A stretch of 64,000 bases of DNA. Source: an uncultured Ectothiorhodospiraceae bacterium. GTDB taxonomy: Bacteria > Pseudomonadota > Gammaproteobacteria > J044. Shown here one piece after another: positions 398-46,542 of this stretch (positions are counted from its first letter, which is position 1; each line of letters begins with the position of its first letter). Under the pieces are notes generated by a model that did no database searches, had not been told where the DNA came from, and saw nothing but the letters and a program-made list of their open reading frames with translations. The stretch lies in NCBI GenBank assembly GCA_964641615.1, contig CAZXNH010000006.1, forward strand, positions 14,381 to 78,380. Reading direction: 5' to 3'. Position numbers and translations under genes: made by a program.

Positions 398-2347
398 TTA
401 TTCGCCCATTGCCATATCGATGTAGCCAGTAGGGCATACATCAGAGCAGATGTGACAACCGATACAACGGTTGTAATCAGTGGCTACGTAACGACCAGTA
501 GTCGCTTCATCCTTCTTGACACGGTAAACAGCATCCTGAGGACAGTAGATGACACAGTTGTCACACTCGAAGCACATACCACAGCTCATGCAGCGACCGG
601 CTTCAGCAACAGCTTCTTCTTCAGACAGAGAAGTCACACGCTCGTGGAAATGCCCCATGACTTCTTCGGCTGTTGGAACGTCTTCAGCACGGTGATGACG
701 AGCTTCAAATCCGAAATGACCAAGGAACAGGCGGTCAGAAGAGATAACTTCTTGCTTAGAGCGATCTTCAAAGTTATGAACTGCGAAGTTGTCACCTGAA
801 GTACCACGCTGGTCACCTACAGAAGAATCATATTCTTTTGGAGACAGACCAGTTTCATTGAGCTTGTCCAACAGGTTGAAGTGATGCTTGTCAACCTTGG
901 GGCGCTTGCCCATTTCCATGTTGTTCAGGTAATGATCAATGCTTTCTGAAGCAATGGACGCCTGACCAATGGCAGTAGTCAGCAGGTGAGGGCGTACAAT
1001 GTCACCACAAACGAAGTGACCCTGTTTGCCAGGCATCTGGTAGAGGCTGTCTGAATCCATCAGACCACGACCGTTGTCGAAAGACTCCAGGCCAGTCAGG
1101 TCACCACTCTGACCGATGGCAGCAACAATCAGGTCAGCCTCTAGTACGCGCTCGGTACCTTCAACTGGCACTGGGCGACCATCTTCCATTGTACAGTCTG
1201 CAATTTTCAGTCCGGTTGCGCGGTTGCCTTCCATAACAAGTGCAACTGGCATAACGCTGGTCAGGATGGTTACACCTTCTTTGGTAGCATCAACGATTTC
1301 ATGCTCTGCAGCAGTCATTTCATCGCGTGGGAACAGAGAGGTCAGGGTAACGTCAGCACCTTGCTTGGCGTTTTCATCGATACCTTCCTGGCTGTTCTTG
1401 CTATTAGAGATTTCCTCAGGAGAGCTGCCGTCAGCAAAGCTGGCAACAGCACCCAGACGACGTGATACAGAAACAACGTCGATAGAGGTATCACCACCAC
1501 CGATACAGACAACCTTAGGACTAACAGCCTTCAGGCGACCTTCGTTGAAGGCTTCCAGGAAGCCAACAGCTGAAATACAGTTTTCAGCTTCTTTCCAGCT
1601 CTCAACAGGCAGATCACGGCCAGTCCAGCAACCGATAGCCCACAGAATAGCATCGTAATCTTTTTCCAGTTCTTCTACGCTTACGTCACGGCCAACGCGG
1701 GTATTGTTGCGAACTTCAATGTTGCCCATGTCGATGATGCGCTGAATTTCGTGATCCAGAACTTCACGAGGCGTACGGTAGCCTGGGATTCCATAGCGCA
1801 TCATGCCGCCGAGTTCTTCGTGATCTTCAAAGATTGTTGAAGCATGCCCCATGCGACGCAGCTGATAAGCAGCAGCCATGCCAGCAGGACCACCACCGAT
1901 GATGGCCACTTTCTTGCCACTCATTTCAGAAGGAGCAGAGAACTTGAAGCCTTCCTTGAATGCGGTGTCACCAATGTACTGTTCGACAGCGTTAATGCCT
2001 ACGAAATCATCAACATCGTTACGGTTACAGCCATCCTGACAAGGAGCAGGGCAAACGCGACCCATCATAGATGGGAAAGGATTAGCGTTGGTTGAGCGCT
2101 GGAAGGCATATTCCTGCATGCTCACGTCGCCAACAGGCTTTTCAATACCACGTACGATATCCAGCCAGCCACGGATATCTTCACCCGAAGGGCAGCTACC
2201 CTGGCAAGGTGGGGTGCGCTGAACGTAAACGGGACATTTGTGAGACTCATCCGCGACAAAGATCTTGTCATGCATGCTATCCCAGGTGTCTACACCGTCG
2301 TCGTACTTACGGAACGTCAATTTGGTATCGTCTTGTGAAGTAGCCAT
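398..2347 (-). CDS. dsrL: DsrL iron-sulfur flavoprotein (NAD(P)H oxidoreductase)
   Basis: N-terminal Fe-S motifs (PCQGSC, GRVCPAPCQDGC), GGGPAG FAD motif, GGGDTSID motif, C-terminal 2x[4Fe-4S] ferredoxin domain; position between dsrK and dsrJ. Confidence 0.95.
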   Translation of the reverse strand: MATSQDDTKLTFRKYDDGVDTWDSMHDKIFVADESHKCPVYVQRTPPCQGSCPSGEDIRGWLDIVRGIEKPVGDVSMQEYAFQRSTNANPFPSMMGRVCPAPCQDGCNRNDVDDFVGINAVEQYIGDTAFKEGFKFSAPSEMSGKKVAIIGGGPAGMAAAYQLRRMGHASTIFEDHEELGGMMRYGIPGYRTPREVLDHEIQRIIDMGNIEVRNNTRVGRDVSVEELEKDYDAILWAIGCWTGRDLPVESWKEAENCISAVGFLEAFNEGRLKAVSPKVVCIGGGDTSIDVVSVSRRLGAVASFADGSSPEEISNSKNSQEGIDENAKQGADVTLTSLFPRDEMTAAEHEIVDATKEGVTILTSVMPVALVMEGNRATGLKIADCTMEDGRPVPVEGTERVLEADLIVAAIGQSGDLTGLESFDNGRGLMDSDSLYQMPGKQGHFVCGDIVRPHLLTTAIGQASIASESIDHYLNNMEMGKRPKVDKHHFNLLDKLNETGLSPKEYDSSVGDQRGTSGDNFAVHNFEDRSKQEVISSDRLFLGHFGFEARHHRAEDVPTAEEVMGHFHERVTSLSEEEAVAEAGRCMSCGMCFECDNCVIYCPQDAVYRVKKDEATTGRYVATDYNRCIGCHICSDVCPTGYIDMAMGE

Positions 2348-2399
2348 TCCTACTCTCCTAATCGATGAATCAGGTAATCTGTTTAATTAGAAACTGCGG

Positions 2400-3947
2400 T
2401 TATGCCGTAGCTTCTTCTGTTTCTTCTTCCTCAACGCCATCAAGCTCAGCTTCCTGTTCGGAGCCTTTGAGCACAATAGCGCTACTGACCAGCTGGTGGA
2501 CACTGACAATCATGTCCATACCAAAGTCGTAGTAAGGAAGAACCTTGCTAAATTGCGATTTACAAATTGCACAGATCGCAGCCATATTTGTAACGCCGTG
2601 ATCTTCAACAACCGTTTTCAGTGCAGCCATACGAGGCATGGCACCCTTAACACGCAGCTCCATAAGGTCGTCTGTCAGCAGACCACCGCCGCCGCCACAG
2701 CAATAAGTAGCGTCATGGATAGTGTCTTGCGGCATGTCGTAATAGTGATTACATACGGTCTTGATAATGTTGCGTGGAATATCAAACTGACCGCCAGGGT
2801 AGGAACCCATACGGCTGCCACGCGCTACGTTACATGAGTCGTGGAAGGTCAGACGCATGTGATCATTCTCTTCAACGTTGAAACGCAGCGTATCTCCCTT
2901 CTGGATGAGGTCCCATGTGAACTCACAGATATGCTGTGGAACAGGATATTTGGGATCCAGGAAGTCGAAGGGACCAGCGAGGGTATTCAGGAAGCTGTAA
3001 GCCACTCGCCAGGCATGCCCACACTCTCCGAAAACAATTCGTTTTACACCGAGTTCCAGGGCAGCTTCTCGGATGCGCATAGCGAGTTTGCGCATATTGG
3101 CATAACTACCAATGAACATACCAAAGTTGGCAGCTTCACTGGCCTTAGAACTCATGGTCCAGCTAACTCCCGCTTCATGGAAAACCTTGCCGTAACCAAT
3201 CAGGCCATCAATATGTGGCTCAGCAAAAAAGTCGGCAGAAGGTGTCACCAGCAGGATGTCTGCACCTTTTTCGTCAAGTGGGTACTTAACGGCAACACCG
3301 GTGTCTTCTTCAACTTCTTCTTCAAGGTCAAGCAGAGTGTCTTTCAACGCAGGCTCTGGCAGACCAAGGTTATTACCCAGGGTCTGCGCCTTAAGAATGA
3401 TTTCGTTACAGTATTTTTGTCCGAGACCAACGGCATCCATGATTTCACGAGCTGCCATGGAAATCTCGGCAGTATCGATGCCATACGGGCAGAATACTGA
3501 ACAACGACGGCACTGTGAGCACTGGTGGAAGTAGCTATACCACTCATCCAGCACATCCTTGGTCAGATCAGTGGCGCCAACCAGGCCAGGGAAGTACTTA
3601 CCAGCAAAAGTAAAGTAACGACGGTAAACCTTGCGCAGCAGGTCCTGACGAGCAACAGGCATGTTCTTAGCATCAGTGGTACCCAGGTAGTAATGACATT
3701 TGTCAGTACAGGCGCCGCATTTTACACACGAATCCAGATAGACCTGGAATGAGCGGTATTTGCCCAGGAGGTCGCCCATTTTTTCAATGGCCTTGTTCTC
3801 CCAGTCATCAACCAGCTCAGTAGGATAGCCAAGGCCTTCCTGGTGAGGGGGCTTCGCAACGAAGGGCGAACTATGCGCCATCGTTCCTTCTTCAAGCTTA
3901 GGAATGATGGGATATTCTGGAATCTTTGGTATATCGAAATCAGCCAC
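2400..3947 (-). CDS. dsrK: DsrK, catalytic Fe-S subunit of DsrMKJOP
   Basis: CVKCGACTDKC and CSQCRRCSVFCP clusters, CCG domain (YCCGGGGG), HdrD-like; operon position. Confidence 0.95.
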   Translation of the reverse strand: MADFDIPKIPEYPIIPKLEEGTMAHSSPFVAKPPHQEGLGYPTELVDDWENKAIEKMGDLLGKYRSFQVYLDSCVKCGACTDKCHYYLGTTDAKNMPVARQDLLRKVYRRYFTFAGKYFPGLVGATDLTKDVLDEWYSYFHQCSQCRRCSVFCPYGIDTAEISMAAREIMDAVGLGQKYCNEIILKAQTLGNNLGLPEPALKDTLLDLEEEVEEDTGVAVKYPLDEKGADILLVTPSADFFAEPHIDGLIGYGKVFHEAGVSWTMSSKASEAANFGMFIGSYANMRKLAMRIREAALELGVKRIVFGECGHAWRVAYSFLNTLAGPFDFLDPKYPVPQHICEFTWDLIQKGDTLRFNVEENDHMRLTFHDSCNVARGSRMGSYPGGQFDIPRNIIKTVCNHYYDMPQDTIHDATYCCGGGGGLLTDDLMELRVKGAMPRMAALKTVVEDHGVTNMAAICAICKSQFSKVLPYYDFGMDMIVSVHQLVSSAIVLKGSEQEAELDGVEEEETEEATA

Positions 3948-3971
3948 TACAGAATCCTCAGTACAACCAAG

Positions 3972-4730
3972 TTATGGTTTGCTTTGCTGCTGGTCACCAG
4001 CAGATTCGAATTCAGCCACAGCCCAGTCAGCAACATGGCGCTGCTCACGTGGGTTGTCCACCTGATTACGGGTGGGGCTAAAGAACACACCAGGAGCATG
4101 CAGAAGCTTGCTGACTGGGAAGATGATCATTAGCACAGCAACCAGGCCCAGGTGGATCAGAAGTAAAGGATCCGAAGGCAGAGGTTGAATGTCGAAGCGC
4201 ATCAGTCCCAGGAAGAAAACTTTAACTGCAACAATGTCGGTGTGCGCAACAAATGTCATAGATGCGCCACTGATACCAATACCAAGGAGTAGAGCGAGCA
4301 TCAGGTGATCAGATGGGGCAGAAATATAGCGAACACGATCCACAAGGAAGCGACGAGCCCATAGGCCAGCCAGGCCGAGAATCATGCCGAACGCTGCGTA
4401 TTTGCCGAAAGGCTGAATGAGATCTACCCACCACCAGACAGGGTCGGTGAAGTATCTCAGGTGACGCAGCAACACAATCAACAGGGTCAAGTGGAAAACC
4501 CAGCCGAACAACCAGATCCACTTGTTTGAGCGGAAAAGGCTGTAAAAGAATACGACTTCTTTAAACATGCGTAACACTACACCACCTTTTGTAACAGGAG
4601 CTGGCGTAGTTGGAATCTTTAAAGGCGCGGGGGTCTTTGCGTATTGACGGATCTTTCTAGCCAGACCAACAACCAGCAGGGCTGTCGCGGCATAAAAAAT
4701 CAGGGCATAAAAAATGCTTAGAAACGACAT
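3972..4730 (-). CDS. dsrM: DsrM membrane cytochrome b (NarI family)
   Basis: Five hydrophobic segments, conserved His in FH, RH, IH and LLH; position between dsrC and dsrK. Confidence 0.93.
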   Translation of the reverse strand: MSFLSIFYALIFYAATALLVVGLARKIRQYAKTPAPLKIPTTPAPVTKGGVVLRMFKEVVFFYSLFRSNKWIWLFGWVFHLTLLIVLLRHLRYFTDPVWWWVDLIQPFGKYAAFGMILGLAGLWARRFLVDRVRYISAPSDHLMLALLLGIGISGASMTFVAHTDIVAVKVFFLGLMRFDIQPLPSDPLLLIHLGLVAVLMIIFPVSKLLHAPGVFFSPTRNQVDNPREQRHVADWAVAEFESAGDQQQSKP

Positions 4731-4777
4731 GTAAGCGTTCCTCTCCCAGTAGCAACCTTAGTGAAGTGGGTGGTTGT

Positions 4778-4801
4778 GGCAGACAGGAGAACCTGTCTGC
4801 C
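4778..4801. other. Perfect 10-bp stem-loop between dsrC and dsrM (terminator/processing/stabiliser candidate)
   Basis: GGCAGACAGG-AGAA-CCTGTCTGCC. Confidence 0.6.
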
Positions 4802-4855
4802 GCACCCGGTTTTTATCTGCCTGCGTAAATCGCAGACCTTACTGATGTCGTAATA

Positions 4856-5191
4856 TTATACGCAACCAGTAGGCTTAGGCAGACCAGCGTACTTACAAGC
4901 CTGTTTAGCAGGACCGTAAGGGAACAGTTCGTACAGGTACTTGCTGTTGCCTTTATCCTTACCCAGCTTCTTGCCGATAGCCTTGGTCAGAACGCGTACA
5001 GCTGGAGCGATCTGGTACTCGTCGTAGTACTCACGCAGGAAGTTGATTACTTCCCAGTGGTTGTCAGAAAGAGGGCAGTCGTCAAGTACAGCCATCTGTG
5101 CACCGATCTCTGGAGTCCAGGTGCTCAGATCTTCCAGGTAACCTTCTTCATCAACTTCAACTGCAGTGCCGTTTACATCAATTGTAGCCAT
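4856..5191 (-). CDS. dsrC: DsrC sulfur carrier (both C-terminal cysteines present)
   Basis: Ends PYGPAKQACKYAGLPKPTGCV (CysB and CysA). Confidence 0.97.
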   Translation of the reverse strand: MATIDVNGTAVEVDEEGYLEDLSTWTPEIGAQMAVLDDCPLSDNHWEVINFLREYYDEYQIAPAVRVLTKAIGKKLGKDKGNSKYLYELFPYGPAKQACKYAGLPKPTGCV

Positions 5192-5234
5192 TTTGTCGCA
5201 CTCCTATGTGGGGCGTTAAAACAAAAAATTTAAT

Positions 5235-5543
5235 TTAAACCCAACTCTGAACGTTATCGTTCTTTGTGGTCAGGTCGACGAAGCCACTGTAGTCAACAAC
5301 AGTGATTCCATCGATCAGCTTGTCTTCACTGATACCGCGTGCCTTCAGGTCTTCACCCAAAACGAACAGAGAGACATTTTCCATTGCACCTTTGACCAGG
5401 TCGGAAACAGCAGTGTTATCTACTGCACCAACAACGCCATCTTCAATCAGAAGAACAGAACTTCCGCTGACCACATGTGCCAGGCAGGATTTCATGGCGT
5501 CACGTTCAAATGGTGACTTGCAAACTGTGTGTAGCATTGCCAT
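5235..5543 (-). CDS. dsrH: DsrH (TusB family)
   Basis: MLHTV.KSPF, LLIEDGV, DLKARG, VDYSGFV motifs; operon position. Confidence 0.95.
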   Translation of the reverse strand: MAMLHTVCKSPFERDAMKSCLAHVVSGSSVLLIEDGVVGAVDNTAVSDLVKGAMENVSLFVLGEDLKARGISEDKLIDGITVVDYSGFVDLTTKNDNVQSWV

Positions 5544-5555
5544 AACAGCAGCTCC

Positions 5556-5963
5556 TTAAAAGCTCAGGACAACATCAGACTGATCCATGATCTCAGCCAT
5601 TTCACTGGCTGAAACCACTCGAATTGAGTCTTTCTCGGCCCAATCATCATCCTCATCTTCCCAGGTGAGGTGCTGAAGATCGTCGAGAGTCAGACCACGT
5701 GCTTCGAGTGACTCTTTTTCAACATAGATCTTGTTGATGTCGTAATCGCCGAGTGCAGAGTAGGTAGGAGAAAAGTTCTTCATACCAATGCCGGCGGTAT
5801 CCTGACCTTTTGTAAGCTGATAAACACCGTCATCAACAAAAGCCAGACTAACGTCCTGTTCAAAGGCTGCACCAATCAGCACGACTTCCAGAGATTCCAG
5901 AGCGTACACAGTGCCGTAGGGCGCCTTACGGTTTACATAAAGAAACTTCTTTACGTCAGACAT
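5556..5963 (-). CDS. dsrF: DsrF (TusC family)
   Basis: KAPYGTVYALESLEVVL, AFVDDGVYQL; likely ATG at 5963 rather than the ORF-track start at 5984. Confidence 0.95.
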   Translation of the reverse strand: MSDVKKFLYVNRKAPYGTVYALESLEVVLIGAAFEQDVSLAFVDDGVYQLTKGQDTAGIGMKNFSPTYSALGDYDINKIYVEKESLEARGLTLDDLQHLTWEDEDDDWAEKDSIRVVSASEMAEIMDQSDVVLSF

Positions 5964-5973
5964 AATGCTCCCC

Positions 5974-6366
5974 TTAATCGCCAAACGTCACAAGACGGTC
6001 ACACTGGATGCCAGCTTCAATCAACTGACCCAGACCTGAGATACGGAAACCCGGGGCAATGTTATCGCCATCCTTGCCCTGACGTTTCGCTTCGTTCTCG
6101 TCCAGGATGCCGCGGCGCTGTGCCGCGGCAATACATACGACCAGATCAATGTTGTGCTTTTCAGCCAACTCAGACCAACGTACCTGGATGTTACGGTCAT
6201 CCTGTGGTGGAACAGTATAACGAGTACTGTTATTTACACCGTCGTGATAAAAGAACACTCGGAAGATCTCATGACCGGCTTCCAGGGCAGCCTCAACAAA
6301 CTTATAAGCTGTATCAGATGCCTGGTGCTGGTAAGGACCTTCGTTGAGCAAAATACCAAACTTCAT
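5974..6366 (-). CDS. dsrE: DsrE sulfurtransferase (TusD family)
   Basis: FFYHDGV and active-site CIAAAQRRG; SGLGQL. Confidence 0.96.
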   Translation of the reverse strand: MKFGILLNEGPYQHQASDTAYKFVEAALEAGHEIFRVFFYHDGVNNSTRYTVPPQDDRNIQVRWSELAEKHNIDLVVCIAAAQRRGILDENEAKRQGKDGDNIAPGFRISGLGQLIEAGIQCDRLVTFGD

Positions 6367-6383
6367 TTCGTATCCTTCCCCGT

Positions 6384-7457
6384 TTAGAAGCGGATATGAG
6401 TTGACGCGTTGAGGCTGTTACGAGAACCGCGCCAGTTGTCAACGTGATACTTGGTGAATGGCAGATTGGTCAGTTCGAAGAAACGAGGCCAGCCAATACG
6501 CTCAATCCAGTCGTTGATACGCTCCCAATCCTTAGCGTCGTTCTTGTAGCAATCAAGAATTCGCTTAACGATGGCAGTAGCTTCAGGCCAACGTGGTGGA
6601 TTGTTAGGTACGCCAGCAGCAACCAGCTTCTGGAATGTAGGCTTGCCACGTGCATTAGAGTGGTTACCACCAACCCAAACGGCCAGCTGAGTATGTTCGT
6701 GGTCGTTGATCTGCATTGGAGGACATGGTGGGTAACAAGCACCACAGCAAATACACTTGCGCTCATCAACTTCCAGTGAAGGCTTTCCGTTTACCATTGC
6801 TGGACGAATCGCAGCTACTGGGCAACGAGCAACAACTGAAGGACGCTCACAGGCGTTACCAACCAGATCGTGGTTGATCTTTGGTGGCTTGGTGTGCTGT
6901 ACGTTGATCGCGATATCACCCTGGCCACCACAGTTGATCTGGCAACAAGAAGTAGTGATATGTACGCGGTTAGGCATGTTGCAGTTGCGGAACTCGTCGA
7001 TGAGTTCATCCATCATGGCCTTAACAACGCCAGAAGCATCGGTGCCAGGAATGTCGCAGTGCAGCCAGCCCTGAGTGTGTGAGAGGGTAGATACTGAGTT
7101 AGCAGTACCACCTACGATGTAACCGGCTTCTTCCAGAGCATCGATCAGTGGCTGAACTTTGGCCTCGTCAGCAACCATGTATTCGATATTACTGCGAATG
7201 GTGAAACGGACGTAGCCGTCACCAAGCTTTTTACCAATTTCATTCAGCTTACGCAGAGAGAAAACGTCCAGGATACGAGTAGTACCCGCTTTAACGGTCC
7301 AGATCTCGTCACCGCTTTCAGCAACGTGCAGCAGAACACCAGGACGTGGATGAGTGTGATACTTCCACTGTCCATAGTTGCGGCGCATAACCGGGTGCAT
7401 GTACTGGAACCCGTCTGGGCAACCGGATTCGATCGGTTGACGCATTTCAGCAGCCAT
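6384..7457 (-). CDS. dsrB: Reverse-type dissimilatory sulfite reductase beta subunit
   Basis: HTQGWLHCDIPGTDASGVVK, TSCCQINCGG siroheme/[4Fe-4S] motif, ferredoxin insert, STHIRF C-terminus. Confidence 0.98.
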   Translation of the reverse strand: MAAEMRQPIESGCPDGFQYMHPVMRRNYGQWKYHTHPRPGVLLHVAESGDEIWTVKAGTTRILDVFSLRKLNEIGKKLGDGYVRFTIRSNIEYMVADEAKVQPLIDALEEAGYIVGGTANSVSTLSHTQGWLHCDIPGTDASGVVKAMMDELIDEFRNCNMPNRVHITTSCCQINCGGQGDIAINVQHTKPPKINHDLVGNACERPSVVARCPVAAIRPAMVNGKPSLEVDERKCICCGACYPPCPPMQINDHEHTQLAVWVGGNHSNARGKPTFQKLVAAGVPNNPPRWPEATAIVKRILDCYKNDAKDWERINDWIERIGWPRFFELTNLPFTKYHVDNWRGSRNSLNASTHIRF

Positions 7458-7490
7458 AATGCCTCCAAATAGTCATTTGTATTCGTGTTG

Positions 7491-7519
7491 AGGCGGAGAG
7501 GCAAATGCCTCTCCCACCT
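7491..7519. other. Stem-loop between dsrA and dsrB
   Basis: AGGCGGAGAGGCA-AA-TGCCTCTCCCACCT (core GGAGAGGCA/TGCCTCTCC). Confidence 0.55.
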
Positions 7520-7543
7520 AAATTAAGGTTCAATCCTTATGGA

Positions 7544-8800
7544 TTAAGCGCTTGCCTGTTCAACTTTACGCTGGAACCACTCTTCTGCAGCTTCATCCCA
7601 GCCATCAGTACGTACGTAAGAAGACTGACGTGGGCTGTTCAGCATGTGTGGATCTACAGGAATGTCGATGCCTTCCAGGAAGTTGACGAGGCCGATACGC
7701 TCGATCATTTCACCGCAGCGCTCATGCTCAAGACCATTCTCAGCCCAGAAATCGATGATTTCTTCAGCCATTTCAATGATCTGCTCGTAATCTTCTTCAG
7801 TCTGCAGCTTCATGAAGGGAACAACAACGGTACCCATCAGGTCACCGATCTTCAGAGTACGCTTACCACCAACCAGGATGGTTACACCCTTGTCGTCGCC
7901 AACGTGCAGAGCCTTGTTCATTACGTTCAGGCAGTGCATACAACGTACGCAGTTGCGGTTATCAACGGTGATGGTGTCATCATCGTTCAGCGCAATTGCG
8001 TTGGTAGGGCAGCGAGAGATAACGTTATCGATAACGTAAGCACGACCCTTGGCTTCAACAAATTCTTTTACTGCAGCCTGGTCAACTTTCATGTCATCGC
8101 GCCAGGTGCCAATGATTGCGAAGTCAGAGCGCTCGATAGCGTTAACACAATCGTTAGGGCAGCCAGATACTTTAAACTTGAACTTGTAAGGCAGAGCGGG
8201 ACGATGAACATCATCAGTGAAGTTGTTCATCAGGTGACGCTGAATGATGGTTTCGCTAGCGCAAGACATTTCGCAACGAGCAGAACCAACACAGCACATG
8301 CCGGTACGTACACAAGGACCAGCACCACCTAGATCCCAGCCATATTCGTTGATTTCATCAAAGAAGTGCTGAGTGTTTTCGGTGGTAGTACCGATGAACA
8401 TGATGTTACCAGTCTGACCATGGAAGGTTACCAGACCCGAACCCCACTTCTCCCAGCTGTCAGCCAGCTGATCCAGCATGTCGGTAGTGTAGAAGTTACC
8501 GGCTGGTGGCTGTACACGAAGGGTGTGAAACTCTTTAGATTCTGGGAAAGCGTTACCAACTTCTGAGAAACGGGGGATGATGCCGCCGCCGTAACCGAAT
8601 ACGGAAACGGTACCGCCTTTCCAGTAACCCATACGGGTTTCGTAAGAATGTTCCAGCTGACCGAGCAGGCCGTTAGCCATGCCGCGGATGCGTTCATCTG
8701 AGTGGTCGTCTCTCAGGCGCTTGAAGCCGCTAATGAAGCTAGGCCAGGGGCCTTCTTCAAGAACGTCAAGCATCGGAGTTGGATACTGCTTATTAGCCAT
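7544..8800 (-). CDS. dsrA: Reverse-type dissimilatory sulfite reductase alpha subunit
   Basis: TPMLDVLEEGPWPSFISG, WKGGTVSVFGYGGG, CVGSARC, KFKFKVSGCPNDC motifs. Confidence 0.98.
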   Translation of the reverse strand: MANKQYPTPMLDVLEEGPWPSFISGFKRLRDDHSDERIRGMANGLLGQLEHSYETRMGYWKGGTVSVFGYGGGIIPRFSEVGNAFPESKEFHTLRVQPPAGNFYTTDMLDQLADSWEKWGSGLVTFHGQTGNIMFIGTTTENTQHFFDEINEYGWDLGGAGPCVRTGMCCVGSARCEMSCASETIIQRHLMNNFTDDVHRPALPYKFKFKVSGCPNDCVNAIERSDFAIIGTWRDDMKVDQAAVKEFVEAKGRAYVIDNVISRCPTNAIALNDDDTITVDNRNCVRCMHCLNVMNKALHVGDDKGVTILVGGKRTLKIGDLMGTVVVPFMKLQTEEDYEQIIEMAEEIIDFWAENGLEHERCGEMIERIGLVNFLEGIDIPVDPHMLNSPRQSSYVRTDGWDEAAEEWFQRKVEQASA

Positions 8801-9301
8801 GGCGATCTCCTTAAATTAGGGATGGCAGATTTCGCAAAAAACCTTATCGACAGTCTTTCTGTCGACATCAAGATCTGAATTGCATCCAGATCCAAAATCT
8901 TTGCTGATAACACTATGGTTATTCAGCCGGACATGAAGTCTAGGCGCCAAACCTGTATCCGAGAACCCTACCCATGGGGTGTTTGCACCACCCCTGTATA
9001 TCTCTTTTGGGATATGCGGACTCAGTCAGGCTAGAAACAAAGGCCAAGACCTGAAACGGCCGCAGAGAATATCACAGTTTTATGATAATGCAATAAAAAC
9101 AGTATATTAGAGTATTTTACTCGGTTATTATGACTCCCTGGAACGTCGCTTTATTACAGATTTATGTATTGAAAACCAAAAACTTAGTCTTACATATGCG
9201 ATAGCTCAATTTTGCGCGTTACAATATGAAGAGTTGTACATCTCAATCATTATCACCACCAGATATTGTGGTGTGTACTTCTGGGAGTTGTTGGGTTAAA
9301 G

Positions 9302-10222
9302 ATGTTGATGATGGATTTGATTGATTTGCGTGGGCGCGGAAACAAAAGTGCGTTTCTTACGGCAAATAGCGGCCAATACCGGGCCTGGCGTGAAGCTAAG
9401 CTTGCCCAGATTCCGGAGGGGCTTGAGAAACTGCTTATTCCGATAGAAAGCCCTCTGCAATTTAATGATCAGGAGATAAGGGCGATCCAGAAAGCTCTGA
9501 TTGCCACCAATATGGCTATCTATGATCTGGGTGGAATACCCGGCGAGAGCAAAGCAGAGCTTGTGCAAAGGAACCGGCAACTGGGATTATGTCGGCTGGA
9601 TGGCAATCTCTGCTCTGATGAAGACAATGTCACATCTTTAAGGGTTAACCAGGAAGGGCGTCATAAGTTCTACATTCCGTATACTAATAGGCGTCTCGTC
9701 TGGCACGCTGATGGCTATTACAACGACAGTGAACACCAGATTCTTGGAATGACGCTACATTGTGTGCAGCAGGCAGCTAGTGGCGGGGAGTCCTTGCTGC
9801 TCGATCATGAGCTGACTTATCTGCATCTACGTGATCAGGATCCGGCCTATATCGATGCTTTTTTTGCTAAGGATGCATTAACAATTCCCCCCAATATTGA
9901 AAATGGTGTGGAAATTAGAGGTGCAAGGACAGGACCTGTATTCTCAGTTTTAGATAATGGCGCACTGCATATGCGGTATTCAGCCAGAAAGAGAAATATT
10001 GAATGGAAGAATGATTCGGTTACCCAGGAGGCGGTAGCCTGTTTGTCGGAATTCCTCGAAGGCTCCAATCCTTATATATACGAATATCGATTGAAGCCTG
10101 GTCAGGGTCTTGTGTGCAACAATATCTTGCATGCAAGAAAGTCCTTCGAGGACGAAGGTCAGGATGAGGCCGCCCGGCTTTTATACAGGGCCAGGTATTA
10201 TGATCGAGTATCCAACACATAG
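9302..10222 (+). CDS. TauD/TfdA-family Fe(II)/2-oxoglutarate dioxygenase-like protein (start uncertain)
   Basis: HxD...H facial triad (WHADGYY; NNILHAR) with C-terminal Arg; divergent from dsrA. Confidence 0.75.
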   Translation: MLMMDLIDLRGRGNKSAFLTANSGQYRAWREAKLAQIPEGLEKLLIPIESPLQFNDQEIRAIQKALIATNMAIYDLGGIPGESKAELVQRNRQLGLCRLDGNLCSDEDNVTSLRVNQEGRHKFYIPYTNRRLVWHADGYYNDSEHQILGMTLHCVQQAASGGESLLLDHELTYLHLRDQDPAYIDAFFAKDALTIPPNIENGVEIRGARTGPVFSVLDNGALHMRYSARKRNIEWKNDSVTQEAVACLSEFLEGSNPYIYEYRLKPGQGLVCNNILHARKSFEDEGQDEAARLLYRARYYDRVSNT

Positions 10223-10248
10223 AATATTGATTAAATAAAGAGCGTAAC

Positions 10249-10434
10249 ATGTTGTATTTAAGTGAAGTATTGATAAAAGAACATGAGCTTGATAGTTATT
10301 CAGAGCTTTGCAGCGTAATTGAAAAATACGCGCGTGATGGCGAGATGCATTTTCAGATCGATGTAAAACCACCCTTTGATGACACGCCTGACAACTGGGA
10401 AGATGATCTGGAAATGGTCTTTTCCAGGGCATGA
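10249..10434 (+). CDS. Small acidic hypothetical protein (61 aa)
   Basis: Compact ORF between the tauD-like and cas6-like genes, 10 bp from the next start; acidic PPFDDTPDNWEDDLE motif. Confidence 0.7.
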   Translation: MLYLSEVLIKEHELDSYSELCSVIEKYARDGEMHFQIDVKPPFDDTPDNWEDDLEMVFSRA

Positions 10435-10444
10435 GGGAACTGCT

Positions 10445-11158
10445 ATGAGTATTTACTGGGAAGAAGATGAGAAAAAGCTGCCTTACCAGGCGCCCGAGGA
10501 CATTGTGGATATCTCCTATGTTCTGTCTGGAAAGACGCTCCCCATCGATCATGCCTATGCATTGTCTAAAGCGATAGAACAGGCATTGCCCTGGTTTATG
10601 GATGAACAGGATACTGGTATTCACAATATCCATGTTGCTGCCTCAATCAATGGCTGGGAAAGGCCGGACGATCTCGAGTCCGGCGTACTGCATTTATCGA
10701 GAAGAACCCGGATGACGCTCCGTATACCTAAGGAGCGCCTCAAGGACGCTGAGGCACTGACCGGCAATGTGCTGAATATTGATGGTAGTCAGATTGAGGT
10801 GGGGAAGAGTAGCGTTAAACCTCTCAGTACCTTACCAACGCTTTTCTCTCGCTACGTATCCACTGAAGAGGGTCAGGAAGAGCCCGACTTCATGGATTAT
10901 TTATATAAAGAATTCAATAAGCTAGGCATTAAAGCTAGAAAGATTCTTTGTGGGAAACAATCCAGTTTCAAGACACCTCAAGGCCTGGTATATACGCGCT
11001 CCGTCATGGTGGCTGACCTGGACCCTGAGCAGTCAGTACGACTCCAGGAGAAAGGTGTTGGAGAATACCGCAAGTATGGATGCGGCCTGTTTTTGCCTCA
11101 TAAGGGCATCAAGCCTGTTGGGGATATGTCCGAAAAACAGCATTTCACAGGAAATTAA
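10445..11158 (+). CDS. cas6: Orphan Cas6/Cmx6 (type I-MYXAN-like) RAMP-fold protein
   Basis: LPIDHAYAL, GIHNIH, NGWERP, LSRRTRMTLRIP and C-terminal glycine-rich loop GVGEYRKYGCGLFLP, typical of the Cas6 Myxan family; likely ATG at 10445. Confidence 0.8.
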   Translation: MSIYWEEDEKKLPYQAPEDIVDISYVLSGKTLPIDHAYALSKAIEQALPWFMDEQDTGIHNIHVAASINGWERPDDLESGVLHLSRRTRMTLRIPKERLKDAEALTGNVLNIDGSQIEVGKSSVKPLSTLPTLFSRYVSTEEGQEEPDFMDYLYKEFNKLGIKARKILCGKQSSFKTPQGLVYTRSVMVADLDPEQSVRLQEKGVGEYRKYGCGLFLPHKGIKPVGDMSEKQHFTGN

Positions 11159-11225
11159 TATTCCCTCTTTTCAAACACATCATTCAGTGGTTTAATTCGG
11201 CGCTGAATTTTTTTGGAGGTTAAAC

Positions 11226-11564
11226 ATGGCTATTGATGTTAACGGTAAATCTATCGAAACCAACGAAAACGGCTACCTGGTAAACCTTGAAGACTGGGAT
11301 GAAGATGTTGCAAAGGCGCTGGCTGCGGTTGAGGGTCTTGAGTTAACCCAGAAGCACTGGGATACCATCAACTACCTTCGTGATGAGTATTTCAACAATG
11401 CAGGTAACCAGCCCAATGAGCGCAATATCGTAAAGGCGATGAGCAAAATCTGGGGCGAGAAGGTTAGCAACAAAGACATGTATGACCTGTTCCCCCTGAT
11501 GACTAGTAAACAGGGTGGTAAGGTTGCAGGCCTGCCAGAAACTCGCCGTAAGGGTGGATACTAA
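11226..11564 (+). CDS. DsrC/TusE-family paralogue lacking all cysteines (RspA-type)
   Basis: GYLVNLEDW, HWDTINYLRDEY, YDLFP, KVAGLP align with DsrC; ends KQGGKVAGLPETRRKGGY; no Cys in the protein. Confidence 0.9.
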   Translation: MAIDVNGKSIETNENGYLVNLEDWDEDVAKALAAVEGLELTQKHWDTINYLRDEYFNNAGNQPNERNIVKAMSKIWGEKVSNKDMYDLFPLMTSKQGGKVAGLPETRRKGGY

Positions 11565-11657
11565 GCGTATTACCCATTCGGGATATGGTAATAGTGGAGC
11601 GCATCCTCTAGAATGCGCTCCAGACTAAATGAACTTCCCCCTTGTGGAGACGAATCA

Positions 11658-11861
11658 ATGAGCGAGAAGAACGATCTGATCAAAGAAATGCTGGAAATGC
11701 AGAAGATGTTCCAGGAATACGAAAGCGCCAATGGCGTTGATCCTCAGGAGTATTACACCCCTCAGGAAGGCGACAAGCTGAATGGCTACCGTGAGAAGTA
11801 TCACGAGCTGGCGGCTAAAGTGCGCGAAATTGCCAGTGAAGAGGTTAACTTCTGGAAGTAA
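11658..11861 (+). CDS. Small hypothetical protein (67 aa)
   Basis: GGAG RBS, ATG at 11658, host-like codon use, followed by a terminator. Confidence 0.7.
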   Translation: MSEKNDLIKEMLEMQKMFQEYESANGVDPQEYYTPQEGDKLNGYREKYHELAAKVREIASEEVNFWK

Positions 11862-11885
11862 TCTCGCCTGAATCGTCAAGATTAT

Positions 11886-11914
11886 AAAAAAGCCGGATTT
11901 AATCCGGCTTTTTT
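11886..11914. terminator. Bidirectional intrinsic terminator
   Basis: AAAAAAGCCGGATT-T-AATCCGGCTTTTTT between convergent genes. Confidence 0.9.
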
Positions 11915-11936
11915 ATTGTCTGCGATTTGTGTGGAC

Positions 11937-12608
11937 TTATAGTTCTGCCCACATTCTGACCAGGTTTATATAAGTAACATCTACCTTTTTAGTCTCGTCA
12001 GCCTCGGGGCTATCCTTTAGAAGCTTTTCTCTGGCCTGATTCAGGTTGAACAGCAACTCCCGCTGTTCTGGAGAGCGGATCATGCTTTGAATCCAGGTAA
12101 CGGCTACCCGGCGTTCACCTGAGGTGACTTCAGCTACATGATGCAGGCTACCCGAGGGATACATCACAGCATCACCAGCCTTCAGCTTTACCTTCTGCGT
12201 TCCAAACTGTGTCTCAATAGTCAGGTCTCCGCCTTCATAACTGTCTGGTTCACTGAGGAAAATGGTTAGTGACAGATCGGTACGATAGCGATCTGGTGCG
12301 CCCATCACAGGATCATCGACATGCGTGCCATAGGTCTGGCCGGGCCCGTATTTTGCGTAGAACGGCGTGGCAACCTTTAAGGGGAGGGCGGCAGACTGAT
12401 AAATTGGGTTTCTGACAAGAGAACCCATAACAAGGTTGTTGAGCTGATTCATGATCTCAGGTGATTCTGAAAGCTCAGTATTGTTCTTTACTCTTCTGGC
12501 AGCCATGCCTGCAGACAGCCTCCCATCTACGAAACGTGCATGGTCCATGATTTCGTTGACAGTTTTCAGTTGATCTGGAGTCAGAACGTTGGGTATTTGA
12601 ATAAGCAT
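11937..12608 (-). CDS. PKHD-type Fe(II)/2OG hydroxylase (PiuC/YbiX family)
   Basis: MLIQIPNVL start, FVDGRLSAG, HVDD, DLSLTIFLS, YEGGDL, YPSGSLHHV, RRVAVTW; real start about 12608, not 12962. Confidence 0.9.
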   Translation of the reverse strand: MLIQIPNVLTPDQLKTVNEIMDHARFVDGRLSAGMAARRVKNNTELSESPEIMNQLNNLVMGSLVRNPIYQSAALPLKVATPFYAKYGPGQTYGTHVDDPVMGAPDRYRTDLSLTIFLSEPDSYEGGDLTIETQFGTQKVKLKAGDAVMYPSGSLHHVAEVTSGERRVAVTWIQSMIRSPEQRELLFNLNQAREKLLKDSPEADETKKVDVTYINLVRMWAEL

Positions 12609-12744
12609 AGATGTGATCCGGGGTGTTTTTGGCGAGTTTATCAAACTCGCTAGCATGATACCGGTTCGACCTTGATATCTCTGGGTTAAATTAAGATCAA
12701 TTCCATGCTTAAATCCCATTTTTATTCTGAACGGATAGAGTCCT

Positions 12745-13068
12745 GTGAAATTAAACGTATTTATTGACGACCAGCCCCAGGCCATAGAGGTTCCGGATTC
12801 CATGATCGCCGAAGGCAAGGAGTTCTTTGCGAAGATGGATGCCGACATGGACAAGGGCTGGCAGATGGGCAGGACCTGGGTTGATAAAGTAACCACTGAG
12901 CAGCGTTGCCAGATAGCTGCAGATCGTCTGCTTACTGCGATTGAAGGTGACAATGAAAGCACGAAATTGCTTATGACGGCCTACATTCTTTATAAGTTAC
13001 CCAAGGCAACTGATGTGCGTATCGACACCAACGGTGAAATGCTGGAAACAGAGTTCATTGCGTACTAA
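12745..13068 (+). CDS. Hypothetical protein
   Basis: GTG start, 107 aa, host-like codon use; 3 bp from the next ORF. Confidence 0.65.
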   Translation: MKLNVFIDDQPQAIEVPDSMIAEGKEFFAKMDADMDKGWQMGRTWVDKVTTEQRCQIAADRLLTAIEGDNESTKLLMTAYILYKLPKATDVRIDTNGEMLETEFIAY

Positions 13069-13071
13069 ACC

Positions 13072-13422
13072 ATGGCCGATATATTTACTGTCAAAACACC
13101 CCTGGCCGTCAGGTTGCCTGACGGACGAAAGAAAATACTCATCGAGTTTTTCCCTCACCCCGAGGGACTTCTTGGCTTCGAATTGTTCTGGGAGCAACAG
13201 GACGACCCTATCTCTCTCATAGAGGTGTATCCAGGAGAACTCAGGGGAGATGGCCCCTGGAAAGTAGGTGATGCCGTGCTAACTGTGCTTGCATGTCATA
13301 GTACTGACTCAGAACTGGCCTCACATTATGCTAACTGGCAGTTCGAACGAGAGATGGGAAAGGTTTATCCTAGCGAGGCGGCTGTTCAGGAGATTGCCCG
13401 AGAGCAGGGCGCTTCAATCTGA
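13072..13422 (+). CDS. Hypothetical protein
   Basis: 116 aa, operonic with the previous ORF, followed by a terminator. Confidence 0.65.
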   Translation: MADIFTVKTPLAVRLPDGRKKILIEFFPHPEGLLGFELFWEQQDDPISLIEVYPGELRGDGPWKVGDAVLTVLACHSTDSELASHYANWQFEREMGKVYPSEAAVQEIAREQGASI

Positions 13423-26558: not shown

Positions 26559-26675
26559 TGGTGGCCTGCATTGGTTCCCTCGCGACGAAAAGCTGTGAAC
26601 CCCGCCAGGCCCGGAAGGGAGCAACGGTAACAGTGGACTCGGGTGCCGGGGTGTAGCTGGTGCGGGTCGCCACCC
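26559..26675 (+). ncRNA. ffs: Signal recognition particle 4.5S RNA
   Basis: Domain IV GCCAGG-CCCGGAAGGG-AGCA; complementary ends GGTGGC/GCCACC; upstream of dnaX; extended -10 TGgTATTAT at 26536-26544. Confidence 0.93.
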
Positions 26676-42175: not shown

Positions 42176-42248
42176 TGTGGACGACCACGCAAAGTACTAA
42201 AGTTTTCCAAGCAAAGTACTTAATTTCCACACAAAGTACTAAATCTGT
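42176..42248 (+). repeat. Tn7-like transposon end: terminal TGTGGACG plus three tandem TnsB-binding-type repeats
   Basis: CAAAGTACT(A/T)AA cores at 42190, 42212 and 42232 (22- and 20-bp spacing); resembles Tn7 ends (TGTGGGCG...AAAGTCTTAAA); candidate 5-bp target duplication AGCAG at 42171-42175. Confidence 0.85.
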
Positions 42249-43715: not shown

Positions 43716-44828
43716 CTATAAAGATTGAAGCACGCCAAGCGCTCCAGATACAGATGAGCAAACTGCACATGAATATTTCTTATCATATCCGGTAGCTTTC
43801 TGTGTAATCAAATGAGCCAACCTCTTCTCGGTGAAAAACGCATCACAGTAAGGAAGCGCTGATGCGGCGTGTCTAATATCGTGAAGATCATTATCTTGGT
43901 ATTTTTGGCTTTTGTCCCACCGGATCGACGCATGCAGCCCTGAAATTACAACAAATGTTGGAAAGTAGCTCTTTGCCTTATTCTGTTTGAATAAATTGTA
44001 AATTGCATAACGCAGCCACTTACCTGATTCAGAATTTATCTTTTCTTCCTCTGAGATAGTTTTTCCAGTTTCTGCCATATACATATCTTCCATACATTTA
44101 GCAATAATATCTCCATATCCATCTAATGACCCGGCAAGCTCACTAAGAAACATTTTCTTAAATGAGTTATTCTCATGCTCGTGATTAAACTTACCTTCGT
44201 TGAGCTTTTCAGAAATTCCAGGCATATTCAATGAAGAAATATCGCCATTTTCACTGATAATATTGATTATATCCGATAAAGATATATTCCACATTTGATC
44301 GATAAACGCCTTTTGGATCACCTTGTCCGTCTCTGGCTCAATGTTTTTATTTGAGGGGGTAACAAAACCCATATTGTATGCCAGCTTAGTCCAAGCCATA
44401 TCACGACAGTCATAGACGCTTTTTCCTGTACTAGAGTACAGAAAATATTTTATTTCTAACTCCAGCCTTTCCTCAAAATTGATTAAAGAAACCCCGCAAG
44501 AAAGCTTATCTATTAACTGAACAGTTTGATTTAAGGTTTCTGGATCGGATTGCTTAATAACTTCTAGTAAAACATCTTGGCTAATTGGAAATATAAGTCG
44601 ATTTTCTTCCGACATCTGCATGATTTCTTTATAAAACTCTTGCTCTAAGACACTCCTAGAGCGGCCTAAAACAATATCTCTAACGATCAACCAGAATTTC
44701 GTGTCAAAATACACGACCTTTTTCGCATTAACCGCTCGACTGAGATCGATACATTTTGATCGGATGTACTGTTCTACACTTATCTCCGGGCTCTTGATAT
44801 GGTGATCAAATGTAAATACGTAATCCAT
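43716..44828 (-). CDS. Hypothetical protein with PIN-like nuclease motifs
   Basis: VVYFDTKFW, PISQDVLLE, NDLHDIRHAASALPYCDAFFTEKRL follow the PIN acidic-residue pattern; ATG at 44828 lies 7 bp after the HEPN gene stop. Confidence 0.55.
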   Translation of the reverse strand: MDYVFTFDHHIKSPEISVEQYIRSKCIDLSRAVNAKKVVYFDTKFWLIVRDIVLGRSRSVLEQEFYKEIMQMSEENRLIFPISQDVLLEVIKQSDPETLNQTVQLIDKLSCGVSLINFEERLELEIKYFLYSSTGKSVYDCRDMAWTKLAYNMGFVTPSNKNIEPETDKVIQKAFIDQMWNISLSDIINIISENGDISSLNMPGISEKLNEGKFNHEHENNSFKKMFLSELAGSLDGYGDIIAKCMEDMYMAETGKTISEEEKINSESGKWLRYAIYNLFKQNKAKSYFPTFVVISGLHASIRWDKSQKYQDNDLHDIRHAASALPYCDAFFTEKRLAHLITQKATGYDKKYSCAVCSSVSGALGVLQSL

Positions 44829-44835
44829 AACAATA

Positions 44836-46413: not shown

Positions 46414-46542
46414 TATTGGATTACTAGAAACAGTATAATTAACTCGCTGTGTGTTACTTCTGCCTCTCTGGTTATCTGCCAACAGAGGAGTCTCTGAATT
46501 TCCGAAAGCAGAAAATTGAAGGGACAATTTTCCATGGTATAT

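Follow-up and report, generated by a model that had tools for sequence, protein, structure and literature searches.

The 64-kb window considered here (64,000 nucleotides from an uncultured Ectothiorhodospiraceae bacterium; GenBank assembly GCA_964641615.1, contig CAZXNH010000006.1, positions 14,381 to 78,380) carries an oxidative-type dsrABEFHCMKL operon (398-8800, - strand) and, divergent from dsrA at its head, five close-set genes (9302-11861, + strand), of which the third encodes a protein of the Cas6/Cmx6 family. Cas6 is normally the enzyme that cuts the RNA of CRISPR (short palindromic repeats that are clustered and regularly interspaced). The window gene is best explained as a vertically inherited member of the Cas6 family that is no longer part of CRISPR and forms the core of a module attached to the oxidative dsr operon of sulfur-oxidizing Gammaproteobacteria.

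The cluster begins with a TauD/TfdA-family Fe(II)/2-oxoglutarate dioxygenase (9302-10222; PF02668, 60 bits), which is followed by a small acidic protein of 61 aa and isoelectric point (pI) 4.15 that matches no family (10249-10434), the 237-aa Cas6 (10445-11158; PF09559 and TIGR02807), a cysteine-less, RspA-type paralogue of the DsrC/TusE family (11226-11564; PF04358, 111 bits; TIGR03342, 95 bits), and a small conserved open reading frame (ORF) of 67 aa counted from ATG 11658 (11658-11861). On the opposite strand, dsrA (7544-8800) and dsrB (6384-7457) are recognized by TIGR02064/TIGR02066, and downstream of them lie dsrE, dsrF, dsrC, dsrM, dsrK, and dsrL (in Pfam, DsrE, DsrE, DsrC, DsrM-like, DsrK-like, and DsrL-like, respectively); the operon's true dsrC (4856-5191, - strand) encodes the C-terminus AGLPKPTGCV. 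A strong bidirectional intrinsic terminator, AAAAAAGCCGGAUUUAAUCCGGCUUUUUU (11884-11916; -21.1 kcal/mol, z -7.7), closes the cluster on one side and a convergent PKHD-type hydroxylase gene on the other. An initial annotation of this DNA had described Cas6 as packed between a TauD-like gene, a small acidic ORF, and a Cys-less DsrC paralogue, in a five-gene cluster that shares its intergenic region with dsrA and ends in one terminator. The genes, the divergent dsrA, and the terminator are all present; there are, in addition, internal hairpins at 11182-11215 and 11595-11622, and the conserved neighborhood is larger than five genes, since it takes in the PKHD hydroxylase and two further genes, orf107 and orf116.

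The Cas6 protein scores above the curated hidden Markov model (HMM) cutoffs of both PF09559 (204.4 bits; cutoff 26.7) and TIGR02807 cas6_cmx6 (137.1 bits; cutoff 98.85). When compared with the PDB by sequence, its sole solved relative is 8fcj_B, the Cas6 of a type I-B CRISPR-associated transposon (E 1e-14). An AlphaFold2 (AF2) model built from an 81-sequence alignment displays beta-alpha-beta elements at a predicted local distance difference test (pLDDT) score of 86.5; it was used in place of a single-sequence model, which reached a pLDDT of only 50. The best Foldseek matches of this model are 8fcu_B/8fcj_B (E 7e-18; template modeling [TM] score 0.74/0.81), and the further matches, to Cas6 of Pyrococcus, Thermus, and E. 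coli, include only other Cas6 and repeat-associated mysterious protein (RAMP) chains of Cascade or Cmr. Judged by sequence and by predicted structure, then, the window protein is a real Cas6-fold (RAMP, double-ferredoxin) protein. The "Cas6-Myxan-like RAMP protein with an intact Gly-rich loop" of the initial annotation is in this way confirmed, and the structure prediction that it had proposed as a check returned the RAMP fold. The loop itself, G204-x-G206...G212-C-G214-x-F216, is intact, and G204, G206, and G214 are invariant. In its HMM family and its double-ferredoxin fold (TM 0.74-0.81), the window protein resembles the Cas6/Cmx6 proteins of type I-B and I-MYXAN systems, the type I-B transposon included (8fcj/8fcu, chain B), and it has in common with them the Gly-rich loop and residues H60, R93, R136, and R209, which are shared by the dsr-type and the CRISPR-linked groups.

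An exhaustive, profile-free search for relatives, clustered at 50% identity, returned 1069 clusters at E <= 1e-3 and 169 at E <= 1e-30. The best 150 of these clusters are 33-68% identical to members known as dsr-linked; direct checks of the dsr context covered a part of this dsr-type clade only, whose named carriers, Sulfuricaulis and Beggiatoa, are all sulfur oxidizers. Cyanobacterial CRISPR-linked members, in contrast, are only 24-31% identical and split off first in distance clustering, so that the dsr-linked copies do stand apart from CRISPR-linked Cmx6, a separation that had been proposed as a further check. The dsr-type proteins also differ from the CRISPR-linked ones in being acidic and in lying in a sulfur-oxidation locus. 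Their signatures include an acidic N-terminal extension with W5, the residues W50, R87, E146, and H219-K220, and a 10-residue inserted loop, S67-x-N69-G70-W71-x-R73-P74 (the N-G-W-x-R-P loop), which is modeled by AF2 at low confidence. R73, R87, K166, and K220 are additional basic residues that are invariant within the clade. Comparison of the window gene with a 95%-identical relative (locus L031) gives a nonsynonymous divergence (dN) of 0.024 and a synonymous divergence (dS) of 0.567 (dN/dS ~0.04), and there are 42 invariant columns among 12 diverse dsr-type members; the gene is under strong purifying selection.

According to the initial annotation, the neighborhood recurs among sulfur oxidizers of the rDsr type, and this is borne out by 17 genomes at species level, by another 9 contigs, and by 80 contigs from metagenomes; the related loci number about 110. 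The 17 genome loci were obtained by scanning one genome per species and are all from gammaproteobacterial metagenome-assembled genomes; the metagenomes were scanned with a 12-sequence Cas6 alignment as the query. In nearly all of the 17, dsrB-dsrA are directed leftward and the genes for TauD, the acidic protein, Cas6, the DsrC-like protein, and the small ORF rightward, and beyond the small ORF come the PKHD hydroxylase gene, directed leftward, and then orf107 and orf116. This dsr synteny is kept across orders. The most constant partner of Cas6 is the acidic protein, whose stop codon lies 10 nt before the Cas6 start: it is present in all genome loci, even in the non-dsr locus L019, and it is directly upstream of Cas6 in 68 of 71 metagenome loci, the three misses having too little flank. 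A DsrC-like gene is found beside Cas6 in every metagenome locus with enough flank (45/45), although in nine it is inverted and follows the small ORF, while TauD is present in 46/50 and dsrA in 30/34. The module is the acidic protein and Cas6, almost always with the Cys-less DsrC/RspA paralogue and usually with the TauD-like dioxygenase. The exceptions are one lineage (L001, L038, L041, and L043) in which the cluster lies away from dsrAB, and loci in which Cas6 has other surroundings, either with the acidic protein only (L019/L020) or beside a SpoU methylase gene (L028).

More distant carriers, among them Sulfuricaulis limicola HA5 (AP014879.1) and other contigs, have the same core plus an extra protein of about 235 aa before Cas6, and in Sulfuricaulis-type loci a rhodanese gene follows the DsrC-like gene. 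In the published genome of S. limicola HA5, SCL_1279 is given as a copy of dsrC and lies five genes away from the dsrA gene SCL_1274 (PMC5024460), an arrangement that agrees with the locus seen here. The extra protein (233-239 aa), which is not found in the window's lineage, is encoded between the acidic protein and Cas6 at L018:9162-9869, L021:9290-9997, L022:9296-9997, L023:2679-3386, L024:9191-9910, L008:9292-9999, and L029:4554-5255. It has no match in Pfam, the PDB, or PHROGs, and the idea that it is a second Cas6 was rejected (hhalign probability 1%). In five other loci (L009, L010, L014, L015, and L017), palindromes resembling repetitive extragenic palindromic elements (GGGGACAGAGC...GGUCUGUCCCC) swell the spacer between Cas6 and the DsrC-like gene to 340-550 nt, compared with 67 nt in the window.

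What surrounds a CRISPR-linked Cas6 is missing here. The window Cas6 is not adjacent to cas8, cas7, cas5, cas3, tniQ, or an array, whereas CRISPR-linked PF09559 relatives do show cas8-cas7-cas5 and arrays. No CRISPR array was detected in the 64-kb window by Tandem Repeats Finder, a repeat finder, Rfam, or a k-mer scan, and tblastn with the Cas3, Cas8/DevT, Cas7/DevR, Cas5, Cas4-Cas1, and Cas2 proteins (I-MYXAN/I-B) of two CRISPR-linked relatives gave no match in it. PADLOC returned no cas match among ten ORFs of the low-GC islands; not every ORF of the window was individually scanned with cas HMMs. The four array methods and the tblastn search uphold the view, already taken from the sequence, that the 64 kb hold neither CRISPR repeats nor other cas genes. 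Among the relatives, other cas genes were found in 0/80 metagenome loci, and no cas gene is called beside Cas6 in the annotated genome and contig loci. Furthermore, the complete genome of S. limicola HA5, which carries the module, is reported to contain 0 CRISPR (PMC5024460); since this organism has Cas6 and no CRISPR, use of the protein in trans by a cognate array is excluded in its case. Arrays are confined to L019/L020: an array end with a 37-nt repeat (TTCAATTGCCGTAATTGGCACCCCCGGTTCAAAC..; L019:2-181, and also L020) lies 9.8 kb upstream of a non-dsr pair of acidic-protein and Cas6 genes, with transposase and methylase genes in between, and its repeat lacks the hairpin, GAUGCC-N4-GGCGUU, that is seen in arrays of the PF09559 family.

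The strong selection on the gene, its adjacency to dsr in hundreds of gammaproteobacterial sequences, and the lack of any CRISPR system nearby suggest that Cas6 has probably been recruited to a role in sulfur metabolism beside dsr. Of the proteins encoded with it, the acidic one has an invariant motif, D-x2-P-P-x2-D-T-P-x2-W-E, and no match in Pfam, NCBIfam, PHROGs, or the PDB. The TauD-like protein is weakly similar to TmpA and to gamma-butyrobetaine and trimethyllysine dioxygenases. Because its iron triad, H135-x-D137...H277, is kept together with R292/R296 (all invariant in 10 relatives), it is probably an active enzyme. The DsrC paralogue is like DsrC, TusE, and RspA in belonging to PF04358 and TIGR03342, in its length, and in its C-terminal arm. 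Unlike true DsrC, however, it lacks both functional cysteines: it contains no Cys at all, and it ends in GLPETRRKGGY, with RKGGY invariant among the homologues, rather than in PKPTGCV. Having no Cys, it cannot itself carry sulfur. Given the published motif definition of a functional DsrC and the description of the family as DsrC/TusE/RspA (PMC8477390), its sequence fits the RspA-type branch rather than a functional sulfur-carrier DsrC. As pure speculation, the R-K-G-G-Y end, with Gly-Gly and one terminal residue, recalls the tails of sulfur carriers and ubiquitin-like proteins, and, equally speculatively, this tail might be a target of the adjacent dioxygenase.

Alignment of the dsrA-TauD spacers led to a conserved palindrome, a possible clue to what this Cas6 recognizes. 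Site 1, TATCTCTTTTGGGATA (8999-9014; consensus TATCCC-N4-GGGATA), lies in the divergent intergenic region and occupies the same position in 14 aligned loci; about 20 nt from it is a related site, TACCCATGGGG (8969-8979; TAYCCC-N2-GGG). The window copy of site 1 forms a hairpin of 11 bp, and does so only on the + strand. After the DsrC-like gene is the equivalent of site 3, of which the window has a degenerate copy, TTACCCATTCGGGATA (11570-11585, + strand). In relatives, site 3 (TATTCC-N4-GGGGTA) is the tip of an 11-14 bp hairpin that is followed by a U-run, and both of its deviations from the palindrome keep the pairing of the sense-strand RNA, with 44 G.U cells that are valid on the + strand only. 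When up to one mismatch is allowed, the motif is found in 433 kb of loci only at sites 1 and 3, with 49 strand hits versus 5.5 +/- 2 in shuffles; in the 80 metagenome loci, 35 copies are at site 1, 12 at site 3, and 8 elsewhere. Site 1 is missing where, in one lineage, the cluster lies away from dsrA. A conserved, extended -10-like box, TGnTATATT (~9066-9081 in the window), faces dsrA, and a block, GTGCTATATTATT (- strand), is present in 11/14 relatives about 55-65 nt from site 1. If the -10-like box is the dsrA promoter, site 1 would lie inside a dsrA leader of ~260 nt. Other hairpins are found within the cluster. Between the DsrC-like gene and the small ORF, a 10-bp hairpin, UGGAGCGCAU-N8-AUGCGCUCCA (11595-11622, + strand), lies in a segment (11562-11626) that folds with -23.6 kcal/mol and a z of -3.5, and the additional internal hairpin at 11182-11215 is followed by U7. 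An Rfam E-value scan of 8700-12000 gave only sub-threshold matches, over the terminator.

Three independent arrays that do lie beside a PF09559 Cas6 (L025, L026, and L030) have in common the repeat hairpin GAUGCC-N4-GGCGUU, which is followed by a UGxxCAC-type handle in two of the three and by UGCUCAA in L025. This hairpin agrees with the sites of the dsr locus in its stem of 6 bp and loop of 4 nt, and three base pairs are identical. Because of this likeness to the repeat hairpin of CRISPR-linked relatives, the palindrome could be an RNA hairpin of the Cas6 type; it could equally be a DNA operator of the CsoR/CstR type.

These considerations have led to a model, somewhat short of an even chance, in which Cas6 is an RNA-hairpin-binding regulator that acts on transcripts of the locus. 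In this model, Cas6 would keep its ancestral recognition of one short stem-loop and would bind hairpins of the UAUCCC-N4-GGGAUA type, perhaps also cutting them at their 3' base. The candidate targets would be the hairpin upstream of dsrA and the one that forms the tip of a terminator-like hairpin following the DsrC-like gene, and binding to them would set transcript stability or read-through both of dsr and of the cluster to which Cas6 itself belongs. At the RNA-binding face, the small acidic protein might be a partner or might compete, and an oxygen or sulfur input might come from the dioxygenase and the DsrC-like protein. A bolder form of the model is more doubtful. Here Cas6 would be domesticated as a dedicated dsr riboregulator that reads solitary, repeat-derived hairpins in the leader of dsrA and within its own operon, while the acidic protein gates its RNA face and the dioxygenase and Cys-less DsrC feed in redox or sulfur status; if true, it would be the first time that one Cas protein by itself is seen to have been enlisted for the control of a core pathway of energy metabolism. 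The initial annotation had proposed that Cas6 processes or stabilizes the dsr mRNA or regulates by RNA binding together with the Cys-less DsrC; the hairpin-forming palindromes of the locus speak in favor of such a function. For processing at sites within the polycistronic dsr mRNA there is no support, since the operon contains no copy of the motif.

Several observations weigh against the RNA-hairpin model. Some of these concern the motif. The related TAYCCC-N2-GGG site has a 2-nt spacer, so no hairpin is possible there. In the symmetric site 1, deviations fall in one half or the other, and its strand bias is mixed, favoring the + strand in two loci and the - strand in four. Where relatives have a long spacer between Cas6 and the DsrC-like gene, a third copy before the DsrC-like gene has one good half-site. 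The dsr operon contains no copy at up to one mismatch in the 433 kb of loci, and the motif was not found in the non-dsr loci L019 and L028, in which Cas6 is present. Other observations concern the protein. Y38 and H52, which are invariant in CRISPR-linked relatives, are not conserved in the dsr-type clade, and at the start of helix 1 the clade has H36 in place of N (D-H-A versus the D-N-G of CRISPR-linked proteins); catalysis may therefore have been lost or rebuilt. Finally, proteins of the clade are acidic, with a median pI of 5.5-6.5 and a net charge of -2 to -8, as against a pI of 9.25 and a net charge of +6 in the basic CRISPR-linked relatives, which amounts to a loss of ~8-14 net positive charges.

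A competing explanation takes the palindromes to be DNA operators of a persulfide-sensing-type regulator of the CsoR/CstR family, or of another dimeric regulator, and is silent on the target of Cas6; it comes close to an even chance. The regulator would be encoded elsewhere, or it could be the DsrC paralogue, which bears a helix-turn-helix. In the work of Grimm et al. from 2010, DsrC itself reportedly binds DNA. In the placement of the motif there is much that suits an operator: site 1 lies in a divergent promoter region beside the related 2-nt-spacer site, is symmetric, and is missing in the lineage in which the cluster is not beside dsrA, and the remaining copies lie ~20-35 nt upstream of -10-like boxes. 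The type 2 operators of CsoR/RcnR proteins consist of AT-rich inverted repeats outside two G/C tracts that are 2-4 nt apart, and they are often in tandem, as in ATATACCCCTNAGGGGTATAT (PMC3902906). TATCCC-N4-GGGATA with the tandem TAYCCC-N2-GGG matches this architecture, a further point against the RNA-hairpin model. In addition, sulfur-oxidation (sox) genes in Thermus thermophilus have a protein of the CsoR family as their regulator (PMC10318464). However, a motif search for the CsoR signature R-L-x-R-I-x-G-Q, confined to the loci, found it in no ORF of the window or of the ~110 loci. Site 3, unlike a CsoR/RcnR operator, forms the tip of a long hairpin in sense-strand RNA, with a U-run after it, and its deviations keep RNA pairing along a stem of 11-14 bp with many G.U pairs. 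Moreover, the geometry of the motif is like that of the repeat hairpin in the CRISPR RNA (crRNA) of the same Cas6 family.

As to the mechanism, the main rival, somewhat less likely than the RNA-hairpin model, is that the fold of Cas6 now serves as a protein-binding subunit and that RNA handling has been lost. The protein would then be part of a putative complex with the acidic protein and the Cys-less DsrC paralogue and, in many lineages, with the 235-aa protein, the TauD-like dioxygenase, and rhodanese as well, and the complex would serve in sulfur trafficking to DsrAB or as a sensor, for example, an oxygen-dependent hydroxylation switch. Such a change of role would account for the 8-14 net positive charges lost relative to CRISPR-linked relatives and for the lack of conservation of Y38 and H52. 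It is in keeping also with the near-invariant additions of the clade (W5 and the loop S67-x-N69-G70-W71-x-R73-P74), with the acidic protein as a constant partner encoded 10 nt away, and with the sulfur-relay neighbors, that is, the DsrC-like gene everywhere and rhodanese in Sulfuricaulis-type loci. Yet the Gly-rich loop and the basic residues of the RNA-binding relatives are strictly retained, and a Cys-less DsrC paralogue could not carry the sulfur.

Very improbable is the idea that this is an ordinary crRNA-processing Cas6 that serves a distant array in trans. In its favor are the family name, membership by HMM, and the array end 9.8 kb upstream in the non-dsr locus L019/L020. But that repeat lacks the GAUGCC-N4-GGCGUU hairpin, there is no array or cas gene in the 64 kb and no other cas gene in any of the 80 metagenome loci, S. 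limicola has a complete genome with 0 CRISPR (PMC5024460), dsr synteny holds across orders, and the clade is distinct and acidic. That the gene is what remains, in decay, of a CRISPR system since lost, or is an artifact of annotation, has only its isolation from other cas genes as an argument and practically no chance, given a dN of 0.024 versus a dS of 0.567, the existence of 150 or more clusters (50% identity), the 42 columns that do not vary in 12 diverse members, and a confident fold model.

What is present, then, is a protein family that was already known, in a conserved genetic system that is new and unconnected with CRISPR. The situation is reminiscent of CRISPR-associated transposons, where Cas components were kept after the link to immunity had been lost or changed, and the closest solved relative of the window Cas6 belongs to such an element. 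The transposons, however, keep a whole Cascade and an array, whereas here a single Cas6 stands beside metabolic genes with no guide-RNA locus. Full-text literature yielded no account of a solo Cas6 that is linked to dsr or domesticated in some other way, with the proviso that most subscription journals were outside its coverage and an earlier mention is possible. In public annotation these proteins are called "type I-MYXAN CRISPR-associated protein Cas6/Cmx6" or "CRISPR-associated protein." The I-MYXAN label is misleading: it inflates CRISPR counts and hides an accessory gene set of dsr, the locus that encodes the central sulfur-oxidation machinery of many environmentally dominant bacteria and whose regulation is poorly understood. 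If RNA binding has been retained, the protein would represent a natural reuse of Cas6 to control genes of the host, and it would be a compact tool for sequence-specific RNA binding whose short ligand is known; if it has been lost, the protein would be an example of how a RAMP fold takes on a new role. Among the carriers, S. limicola HA5 is in culture and has a complete genome.

Some details of the gene models and of the flanking genes should be added. The start of Cas6 is taken as ATG 10445 rather than TTG 10376, because the N-terminal M-x-x-W-x-E is kept in relatives. The fifth ORF, which has no family match in Pfam, NCBIfam, or PHROGs but is matched by tblastn in most relatives, was given a mechanical start at 11613. 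Its alignments suggest that it most likely starts at ATG 11658, since the relatives align from residue 16 onward only and 11595-11622 forms the 10-bp hairpin. The convergent PKHD/YbiX-type Fe(II) hydroxylase (11937-12608, - strand; NF003974, 253 bits) probably starts at 12608, because NF003974 matches from residue 119 of the 341-aa ORF at 11937-12962. It is the second Fe(II)/2-oxoglutarate oxygenase that is syntenic with the cluster in most loci, alongside orf107 (12745-13068, + strand) and orf116 (13072-13422, + strand), which follow it.

Elsewhere in the window, a low-GC island (GC 0.40-0.43) carries a complete Gabija anti-phage pair (46543-50663, - strand), consisting of GajA (48420-50663; PADLOC E 1.7e-254) and GajB (46543-48423; E 9e-226), both on the - strand; the flanking ORFs at 43716-46527 have no PADLOC match. 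A 20-nt tandem repeat, CCACGCAAAGTACTAAATTT, is present in 2.9 copies at the edge of a low-GC island (42185-42244). The sole above-threshold Rfam match in the window is the bacterial small signal recognition particle RNA (RF00169, 66.9 bits) at 26569-26665 on the + strand.

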